This document shows, piece after piece, positions 6,439 through 7,507 of a DNA stretch of 22,129 nucleotides. The notes under the pieces are model-generated. The model worked only from the letters and a program-made list of their open reading frames with translations, did not search any database and was not told the origin of the DNA. The DNA comes from a virus. Lineage: Duplodnaviria; Heunggongvirae; Uroviricota; Caudoviricetes. The position numbers and the translations under genes were made by a program. Numbering within the stretch: the stretch's first letter is position 1; every line of letters starts with the position of its first letter. The stretch is taken from positions 1 to 22,129 of the IMG/VR virus record IMGVR_UViG_2526164668_000016; one strand, given 5' to 3'.

Positions 6439-6708
6439 CTAAATCAGTAAGTTGGCAGCATCACCCAATTTTTTACCGTTATTCACGTTACAGTAAATTT
6501 CGGCAAGTTCGCGTGATAACATTATTTCTCCGTTATGTTTATCTATAGCAATGTGATCGGGATTATCACGAATAAACTTCTTTATCATTGGCATTGCCAT
6601 AAACTCTTCTGGCGTATAGATGAGTGTATGGCGGCGAACGTGTTTTATCACAGGTGTTTTATGTTTTGATTCAACCTGAAATACATTAATTTTATTCTGA
6701 TTTGACAT
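6439..6708 (-). CDS. hypothetical protein, last gene of leftward operon; C-terminus replaced by IS1 sequence (truncated)
   Basis: ORF begins 2 nt after the upstream stop; the last 9 codons and the stop lie inside the IS1 terminal repeat (6439-6465), so the native C-terminus is lost. No recognisable family. Confidence 0.45.
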   Translation of the reverse strand: MSNQNKINVFQVESKHKTPVIKHVRRHTLIYTPEEFMAMPMIKKFIRDNPDHIAIDKHNGEIMLSRELAEIYCNVNNGKKLGDAANLLI

Positions 6709-6710
6709 GT

Positions 6711-7292
6711 TTAATGTTCCAATGGTGTTTCTGGCATACCATGAGTATTCAGATCGTGAATCATTTCATCCAGAAGAAGTTCAAGCCCTTCTCGTCCCAT
6801 AGCAGAGACAATGAAGCCATTATCAGGATCTGCGATGAGCATTTTTTGATAGAGAAACAGAACTCGCCCCATGCCTTCAGCTTCGCCATATTTTTCAATG
6901 AATCTCCATTCGACATGGTTTTGCAGGGCAATGCGAAGTGGCCCTGGGTAGATACTCAGGCAACCATGTTTACCCTTGTAAATAACTGCGCGATCTGTAG
7001 TTCCATTATCGTTAGGGATATCAATGGTGCCGTTCTTGCCTTCTTCTTCATTTATAAACGTCGTCACATACAGCCATCGCCATTGAGCAATCTTCATATC
7101 GACTGAAAATCGTCCCAGTAATCCGGCATCATCGGCTTCAGCAATACATTGCATAATTCTTAAACCGTGAGAATTTGGATAATCGTATTCACCATCATTA
7201 AGCCGCTGTACGGCCTCAACATAATCAATGGTTGTATTGCCAATTTTTATGCCATGTGGCGTAACTTCTGGTCGGAACTCTGAATGATTCAT
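6711..7292 (-). CDS. hypothetical protein (193 aa), unknown family
   Basis: ATG at 7292 preceded by GGAG with 8-nt spacer; start overlaps the upstream stop as ATGA (translational coupling). AT-rich codon usage. Confidence 0.55.
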   Translation of the reverse strand: MNHSEFRPEVTPHGIKIGNTTIDYVEAVQRLNDGEYDYPNSHGLRIMQCIAEADDAGLLGRFSVDMKIAQWRWLYVTTFINEEEGKNGTIDIPNDNGTTDRAVIYKGKHGCLSIYPGPLRIALQNHVEWRFIEKYGEAEGMGRVLFLYQKMLIADPDNGFIVSAMGREGLELLLDEMIHDLNTHGMPETPLEH

Positions 7293-7507
7293 AATGTTTG
7301 CTCCTTTGCTGGTGGAATAATCGTGTAACCCGCTCTTTTTGCCATCCACAGAAATGTATCCATGCAGCCAACGAATTCATTATCCAACAGATGTTTTGAG
7401 TAAATTACTTTCCCATTTTCAATGGTTAGCAACACTCTTACTTTTTCGTGTATTACCCCCCCCTGCTCAGGCTCATTCTGCATTTTATTTCGTGCTGATG
7501 TCTCCAT
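7289..7507 (-). CDS. hypothetical small protein (72 aa)
   Basis: ATG at 7507 preceded by GGGAGA RBS (alternative ATG at 7522); contains an in-frame G8 homopolymer (plus-strand C8 at 7456-7463); stop overlaps the next gene's start. Confidence 0.45.
   Translation of the reverse strand: METSARNKMQNEPEQGGVIHEKVRVLLTIENGKVIYSKHLLDNEFVGCMDTFLWMAKRAGYTIIPPAKEQTL

Follow-up and report, generated by a model that had tools for sequence, protein, structure and literature searches.

The window, by which we mean the whole stretch of DNA analysed here, consists of the 22,129 nucleotides (nt) of the IMG/VR virus record IMGVR_UViG_2526164668_000016 (Caudoviricetes), in which three small genes, hereafter gene 1, gene 2 and gene 3, follow one another closely on the minus strand. 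Reading of the sequence verified the junctions that the initial annotation had reported, with gene 1 and gene 2 overlapping as ATGA at 7292-7289 and gene 3 starting, at the ATG in 6708, 2 nt past the stop codon of gene 2. Gene 1 carries a run of eight G in its coding frame, and gene 3 is truncated by an IS1 element. We consider, with good though not full confidence, that the three open reading frames (ORFs) stand in a row as accessory genes in the early-left (pL-type) operon of an E. coli prophage of the lambdoid, phiP27-like kind, and that they are separate mosaic cassettes, with a G-run that slips without being a dedicated switch.

Gene 1 is a homologue of phiP27 L07 and belongs to phrog_340 (PHROG match with E = 1.8e-24), and gene 2 is a homologue of phiP27 L06 and belongs to phrog_1515 (E = 1.1e-90). 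By tblastn, the products of genes 1 and 2 were, respectively, 87% and 90% identical to L07 and L06 of phiP27, a Stx2e phage (NC_003356), and both were 100% identical to gp52 and gp53 of ASU11, a mitomycin-induced phage according to its record. Gene 3, to which no PHROG was assigned, is rarer and is 93 amino acids (aa) long when intact. The block 6466-8300 was 99.8-100% identical to chromosomal prophages of E. coli CD45, 2013C-4991, FWSEC0002, OkiPb01716 and 95_0274, and this prophage family is integrated beside yecE/yecN/cmoA. The order in intact relatives is CI-type repressor, protein with two helix-turn-helix (HTH) domains, L08 small gene, gene 1, gene 2, gene 3, DUF5406, DUF4222, a 44-aa gene, xis and int, and beyond int there are the bacterial genes DUF72, yecN and cmoA. 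In the window, likewise, cI is followed by genes that all lie on the minus strand, the same strand as the repressor. The remaining content of the window is represented by Rha, Ash, replication proteins, DnaB, DUF968, the Q antiterminator, an AraC-type regulator, TerB, two tRNAs, the AgvB small RNA (sRNA) and nanS-p; this content, including the Cro-like protein, Q and DnaB, fits a lambdoid prophage. The coordinates of the features are collected in Table 1.

Table 1. Features of the early-left region of the window and of the DNA that adjoins it (sizes as read in the window)
Feature	Position	Strand	Description
Plasmid-type DNA	1..5691	+	F4/K88-like fae fimbrial operon, ISEc16, AT-rich spacer
IS1A-like element	5692..6465	-	774 bp; both inverted repeats present; about 99% identity to IS1A copies
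Gene 3, as read in the window	6439..6708	-	89 aa, of which 81 are native (6466-6708) and 8 encoded by IS1, with the stop codon inside IS1
Gene 2	6711..7292	-	193 aa; ATG 7292, TAA 6713-6711; own strong AAGGAG
Gene 1	7289..7507	-	72 aa; ATG 7507, TGA 7291-7289; GGGAG 9 nt upstream of the ATG
G8 homopolymer in gene 1	7456..7463	-	C8 on the plus strand; in frame CAG GGG GGG GTA, Q-G-G-V, residues 15-18
+1-frame ATG in gene 1	7474..7476	-	31 nt downstream of the main start; no obvious Shine-Dalgarno sequence
44-aa ORF, unannotated	7512..7646	-	AGGAG; stop 4 nt before the ATG of gene 1; MTFLKHKASYKTACLIAQHGDSYLHIANLYLRKAYGR
phiP27 L08-like gene (phrog_5451)	7704..8087	-	Upstream early gene; PHROG and phiP27/ASU11 annotation
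Gene for a protein with two HTH domains	8291..9004	-	First gene of the early-left operon
CI-type repressor gene	9103..9849	-	HTH and S24 peptidase; marks the immunity region
Cro-like gene	9955-10215		Divergent from the CI-type repressor gene
Second G8	18005-18012	+	Intergenic; about 95 nt before the ATG of the AraC-family gene 18107-18820 and about 55 nt before a TATAAT

The closest parallels are phiP27 L07/L06 and ASU11 gp52/gp53, which share with the window the gene order, the ATGA-type junction and the early-left place between the immunity region and xis/int. PhiP27 differs in that its gene 1 allele, of 62-67 aa, has no G-run and in that gene 3 is absent, a lipoprotein gene of the SPFH/Band_7 type coming next after a gap; in ASU11, gene 3 was left unannotated. 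The initial annotation had itself named a description as ordinary phage early proteins as something that would speak against a specialised module, and this is how L07 and L06, two genes of the early-left operon of phiP27, are described. The genes are, in this sense, ordinary and already catalogued phage early ORFs. The ea/orf genes of lambda and the ea genes of P22 are non-essential early-left accessory genes located between the recombination genes and xis/int; they resemble the genes considered here as small, tightly packed mosaic genes on the pL transcript that are gained or lost singly, the likeness being one of position and behaviour.

Along the operon of intact relatives the junctions measure -4, +2, -4, +31, +3, +18 and +33 nt, and the overlap between gene 3 and DUF5406 is of 4 nt, like the one between gene 1 and gene 2. 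Short overlaps and gaps are found operon-wide; phage early genes are usually packed in this compact, translationally coupled way, and the spacing does not set three genes apart as a module. Moreover, the genes assort independently. In DNA searches of 5,426 complete E. coli genomes, gene 2 was found in 284, gene 3 in 14 and gene 1 in 83, the last count referring to alleles close enough for a DNA-level search, which diverged gene 1 alleles escape; gene 3 was missing from 95% of the genomes bearing gene 2. Genes 1 and 2 occur without gene 3 in phiP27, SE11 and Stx2_95, and in phi467 they are parted by another small gene. As for more distant homologues, those of gene 2 in Klebsiella, Aeromonas and Citrobacter phages (45-52% identity) are preceded by phrog_1886 and phrog_1525, not by phrog_340, and the gene 3 homologue of Pantoea is preceded by phrog_37204; in Citrobacter sp. 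S-77 the triad is kept.

Scans of the three proteins against Pfam, NCBIfam and PADLOC gave zero matches, and among the families scanned no HTH, RHH, AbrB or antitoxin family was found in genes 1-3. A profile search against the PDB returned nothing for gene 2 and only chance-level matches for gene 1 (E ≥ 0.19), a PDB fold search returned nothing above noise, and literature searches on the function of these ORFs gave nothing. In the AlphaFold2 (AF2) model of gene 1, residues 1-20 are predicted to be a disordered tail (confidence score, pLDDT, about 50-60) followed by a conserved core (pLDDT about 90) modelled as a beta-hairpin and a helix. This core weakly resembles the C-terminal part of the anti-repressor PHROGs 4792 and 2379 (E from about 1e-3 to 2e-6 across family members), and our best guess is that gene 1 may encode a small protein-binding modulator of early development. 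The gene 2 product has a confident predicted alpha/beta model, with no known fold. An exhaustive profile search collected no more than 130 representative clusters of the gene 2 family, the full-length members being about 190-220 aa long and many others being short fragments, and the family was found in prophage early-left operons only. The label "2-polyprenylphenol hydrolase/flavodoxin oxidoreductase", carried by gene 2 homologues of Klebsiella phages, was considered and rejected as an annotation artefact, since no family or fold search backs it. In prophages of Pantoea and Klebsiella, two genes upstream of the homologues of gene 2 or gene 3, there is also a 73-aa early gene of phrog_1525, unrelated to gene 1, with a precomputed match to the Pfam family ParE_like (PF24732); this gene may be genuine toxin-like cargo of those operons.

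As for the G-run, it encodes Gly16 and Gly17 of gene 1, inside the predicted disordered tail. The window contains two G8/C8 runs against 0.53 expected, and at least two were obtained in 12 of 100 shuffles, so that a lone run of this kind is not statistically remarkable. Of the 83 E. coli genomes in which gene 1 was found, 6 carry the segment with the tract; in the other 77, gene 1 is a 62-aa allele whose N-terminus is diverged and 30 nt shorter, and the similarity is back directly after the run. Judged from these alignments, the G-run is shown as a lineage-specific insertion in a variable region of gene 1, the putative disordered tail. Across gene 1 homologues it is not kept, and interrupted variants (QRGV and QMGV) exist. 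As the tract is restricted to a sub-lineage of gene 1, it cannot be a built-in part of how the gene set is controlled.

Within that sub-lineage, however, the length of the tract does vary, as the comparison of near-identical prophages showed. At the DNA level, G8 was found in the window and in about 16 other loci, G7 in three, G6 and G9 in one each, CAA plus G10 in two and G11 in one; at the protein level QGV (G5) was found, besides the interrupted forms named above. Counted over blocks, G10/G11 occurred in 54. Among 13 copies of a 1,835-bp block differing by at most 2 substitutions, we counted three independent tract changes, against four substitution events and one other indel. A scan of genome contigs for more tract alleles gave nothing, and one of metagenomes gave only two further G8 copies. 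About one fifth of the loci were out of frame, a fraction to be read with the consideration that long-read under-calling of homopolymers is possible for some of the short alleles. Of the proposal that the run is a slipped-strand hotspot able to turn the genes on and off, the hotspot stands, with lengths from G5 to G11, and the switch is unlikely, given that in-frame lengths dominate and that control runs vary too.

Precisely, the control run of the same prophage is the second G8 (Table 1), with ten G in OkiPb01716 and seven in B1_2 and TW05614. Many matches with E. coli prophages stop exactly at this second run, which hence also marks a mosaic boundary. In 5 of the 24 contigs that were read (L046 and four similar ones), the tract-less 62-aa allele of gene 1 is in turn frameshifted, with A6 shortened to A5 (CATAAAAAAGTA to CATAAAAAGTA), therefore gene 1 is recurrently inactivated by other routes too. 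The variation of an intergenic G8, the frameshifts in a tract-less allele and the dominance of in-frame lengths, which are three bases apart and indicate selection for an intact protein, together argue against a dedicated switch, and programmed phase variation is a poorer fit than a mutational hotspot under relaxed selection.

The lambdoid architecture suggests how this would work. One long early transcript would start downstream of the CI repressor gene after induction or infection, and the operon would be silent in the lysogen; a promoter-like match lies at 9031-9003, by the first gene of the early-left operon. The G-run would slip during replication, a step that the observed alleles partly show. 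In-frame lengths (G5, G8, G10/G11) would prevail since the phage benefits from the protein. Out-of-frame lengths (G6, G7, G9) would arise again and again and, the gene being presumably silent in lysogens, would last for some time.

Some points weigh against this account. The adjacency of gene 1 and gene 2 is kept across phiP27-like and Stx phages of E. coli and Citrobacter, down to about 58% and 68% identity, and is compatible with co-function. Since no function is assignable to any of the three proteins, there may be a functional link between them. A proportion of about one fifth of loci out of frame is more than expected for a gene essential to the phage, and would also suit a switch. Finally, it is from architecture that repressor-controlled pL transcription is inferred.

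The alternative that would give the tract a more active role is that the poly-G is a true contingency (phase-variation) locus, reversibly turning gene 1 on and off in a population of lysogens or phages and thereby diversifying the outcome of induction, infection or superinfection. We consider it unlikely. Poly-G phase variation is known from the simple-sequence contingency loci of Neisseria, Haemophilus, Campylobacter and Bordetella, with which the tract shares a G-run of at least 8 in the 5' part of an ORF and frame-switching length differences among isolates. Out-of-frame alleles occur among prophages that are otherwise nearly identical, and G7 arose at least twice, on differing gene 2 backgrounds (L002 versus L023 and L025). 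In the G7 allele, a TAA right after the run ends the main ORF, with no compensating change. In the G6 and G9 alleles (L018 and L014), three-frame translation indicates that a frame opened at the +1-frame ATG crosses the tract and enters the conserved core (MSLSRG(G)VIHEK...), so that two of the three frames are potentially productive, and in L018 one gene caller called a 61-aa gene from this ATG; in the window, with G8, the same ATG gives a 7-aa peptide only. On the other hand, the tract is limited to a sub-lineage and to a tail that is, as predicted, disordered and dispensable, in-frame lengths prevail (about 17 loci with G8, besides the blocks with G10/G11), the unrelated intergenic G8 varies as much, the tract-less allele gathers frameshifts too, and some short alleles come from long-contig assemblies, in which the run may be under-called. 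The tract differs from the known contingency loci in its host as well, as E. coli with intact mismatch repair is not, to our knowledge, known for poly-G phase variation, and in not being conserved across the gene 1 family. Programmed frameshifting or transcriptional slippage at the G8 was also considered, and rejected: the -1 frame meets an immediate TAA and the +1 frame a stop after 15 codons. Slightly less likely than a contingency locus in general is the specific version in which the poly-G is a working contingency switch of a temperate E. coli phage that stochastically toggles a small early protein resembling the C-terminal part of Ant, with two of the three length classes still expressing the core via alternative starts. 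If it were true, the members of a population of lysogens or phages would differ in an early decision, for instance on anti-repression, host takeover or anti-defence.

A further possibility, in our opinion about as unlikely as a contingency locus, is that the out-of-frame tract lengths and the junction between IS1 and prophage are artefacts of sequencing or assembly, and it has to be weighed with what lies at the junction. The loss of the native C-terminus of gene 3 at IS1, as initially described, was verified: the native sequence and the similarity to prophages end at 6466, where intact relatives continue to complete their 93 aa. In the window the 81 native residues are followed by GDAANLLI* from IS1, which replaces the last 12 codons; the lost end holds a KKxIR motif conserved as far as Pantoea. 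The IS1 is bounded by the inverted repeats GGTGATGCTGCC at 6465 and GGTAATGACTCC at 5692. What the initial annotation overlooked is that on the far side of IS1 there is unrelated plasmid-type DNA and not the remainder of gene 3. In fact, 1-5691 matches plasmids of bovine E. coli at 99.5-100% identity, with the same IS1 in the same place on pOkiPb01716_1 and on the C7 and C3 plasmids, in which IS1 is then followed by type VI secretion system (T6SS) genes. Neither a repeat of CAATTTTTT, as a target-site duplication, nor a gene 3 remainder was found on the far side of IS1, and a simple IS1 insertion is ruled out by the missing duplication together with the foreign flank. The prophage in this sequence is separated from DUF5406, DUF4222, xis, int and attL.

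The hybrid formed by 1-6465 and 6466-22129 would be either the product of an IS1-mediated cointegrate or recombination, or a contig that is chimeric across IS1. The junction of IS1 with gene 3 was found in no complete genome or plasmid of the collections searched, and in OkiPb01716 the two halves are on separate replicons, plasmid and chromosome. With respect to the plasmid copy of IS1A, otherwise identical, insB is broken by six 1-nt insertions and also has one substitution, all lying in a stretch of 300 bp (5772-6073) with indel-free flanks; this is typical of consensus error in a repeat and suggests a consensus or polishing error rather than natural decay. The G6 allele and one of the G7 alleles come from megabase-scale contigs, probably long-read assemblies. 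In contrast, the G10/G11 alleles are present in dozens of independent assemblies, the interrupted protein variants QRGV and QMGV represent real evolution at the site, and G9 comes from the draft assembly GCA_012459165.1, which is assumed to be short-read. The gene 3/IS1 junction itself needs spanning reads.

The initial annotation had read the triad as a discrete stoichiometric module, such as a toxin-antitoxin or sensor-effector pair. Because the genes assort independently, because tight spacing is found operon-wide and because no toxin, antitoxin or defence family or fold was matched, there is no positive evidence for such a system. That the prophage carries, in the triad or in genes 1 and 2 alone, a toxin-antitoxin or sensor-effector module of the abortive-infection type is highly improbable: the ATGA overlap with the 2-nt gap, the conservation of the pair across phiP27-like and Stx phages, and the frequency of defence cargo in prophage early regions would favour it, but the family scans are empty and the PDB sequence and fold matches are at noise level, no DNA-binding antitoxin-like domain is found in genes 1-3, homologues of the three genes occur apart, several genomes have a frameshifted gene 1 beside an intact gene 2, gene 3 is usually absent, and the genes are embedded in a long operon, a prophage early-left operon in every chromosomal and phage context inspected, instead of forming an autonomous cassette. 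The likeness to type II toxin-antitoxin operons is therefore in the small overlapping genes; the toxin or antitoxin family or fold, the DNA-binding partner and the autonomous operon are lacking here, and the partners are not consistently adjacent.

As regards the genes around the triad, the 44-aa ORF at 7646-7512, which had been overlooked as well, is, from its sequence, probably a fourth coupled gene. Its region is conserved at the nucleotide level, a 37-aa version is called by gene callers in two other loci (L015 and L029), and in P0203 and L031 it is fused in frame to gene 1, giving 110 aa. The 200 nt upstream of gene 1 are conserved, and we also considered whether they contain a structured RNA. 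This was rejected: there was no Rfam match, and a small ORF with a Shine-Dalgarno sequence better accounts for the conservation. For gene 1 itself, a mechanical list of ORFs gives a longer form of 77 aa from an upstream ATG at 7522; the form annotated by PGAP in relatives is the one of 72 aa. For the L08-like gene, the PGAP annotation of relatives covers just a C-terminal piece of 68 aa, whereas the form of 121-127 aa matches phrog_5451 end to end (E = 1.4e-81), as well as phiP27 L08, hence the annotation of its start codon is inconsistent.

Farther away in the window, scans with Rfam and ARAGORN (sites 11085-11273, 18849-19097 and 19867-20123) found isrK and C4 antisense RNA in the region of the ash-like gene, as well as tRNA-Met and tRNA-Arg and, upstream of nanS-p, the sRNAs STnc100 and AgvB (anti-GcvB). 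This set of RNAs is typical cargo of Stx-type prophages, yet there is no stx gene between Q (16594-16974) and nanS-p (20271-22121).

The general importance of these results is little, and they strike a candidate toxin-antitoxin or defence module off the list. Tight gene spacing inside a phage early operon is not evidence for a module. In the contig, IS1 links plasmid fimbrial DNA with a chromosomal prophage, and reading this join as a plasmid integration hinges on read-level validation. As for the G-runs, those of at least 7 in Stx-type and phiP27-type prophages are length-polymorphic across public assemblies, and this variability affects pseudogene calls and annotation, as in strain 95_0274, where gene 1 was dropped by PGAP. 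Finally, phrog_1515, with its confident predicted structure of no known fold, and phrog_340, with its well-predicted core, are common in prophages of pathogenic E. coli and are thus reasonable targets for functional screens.

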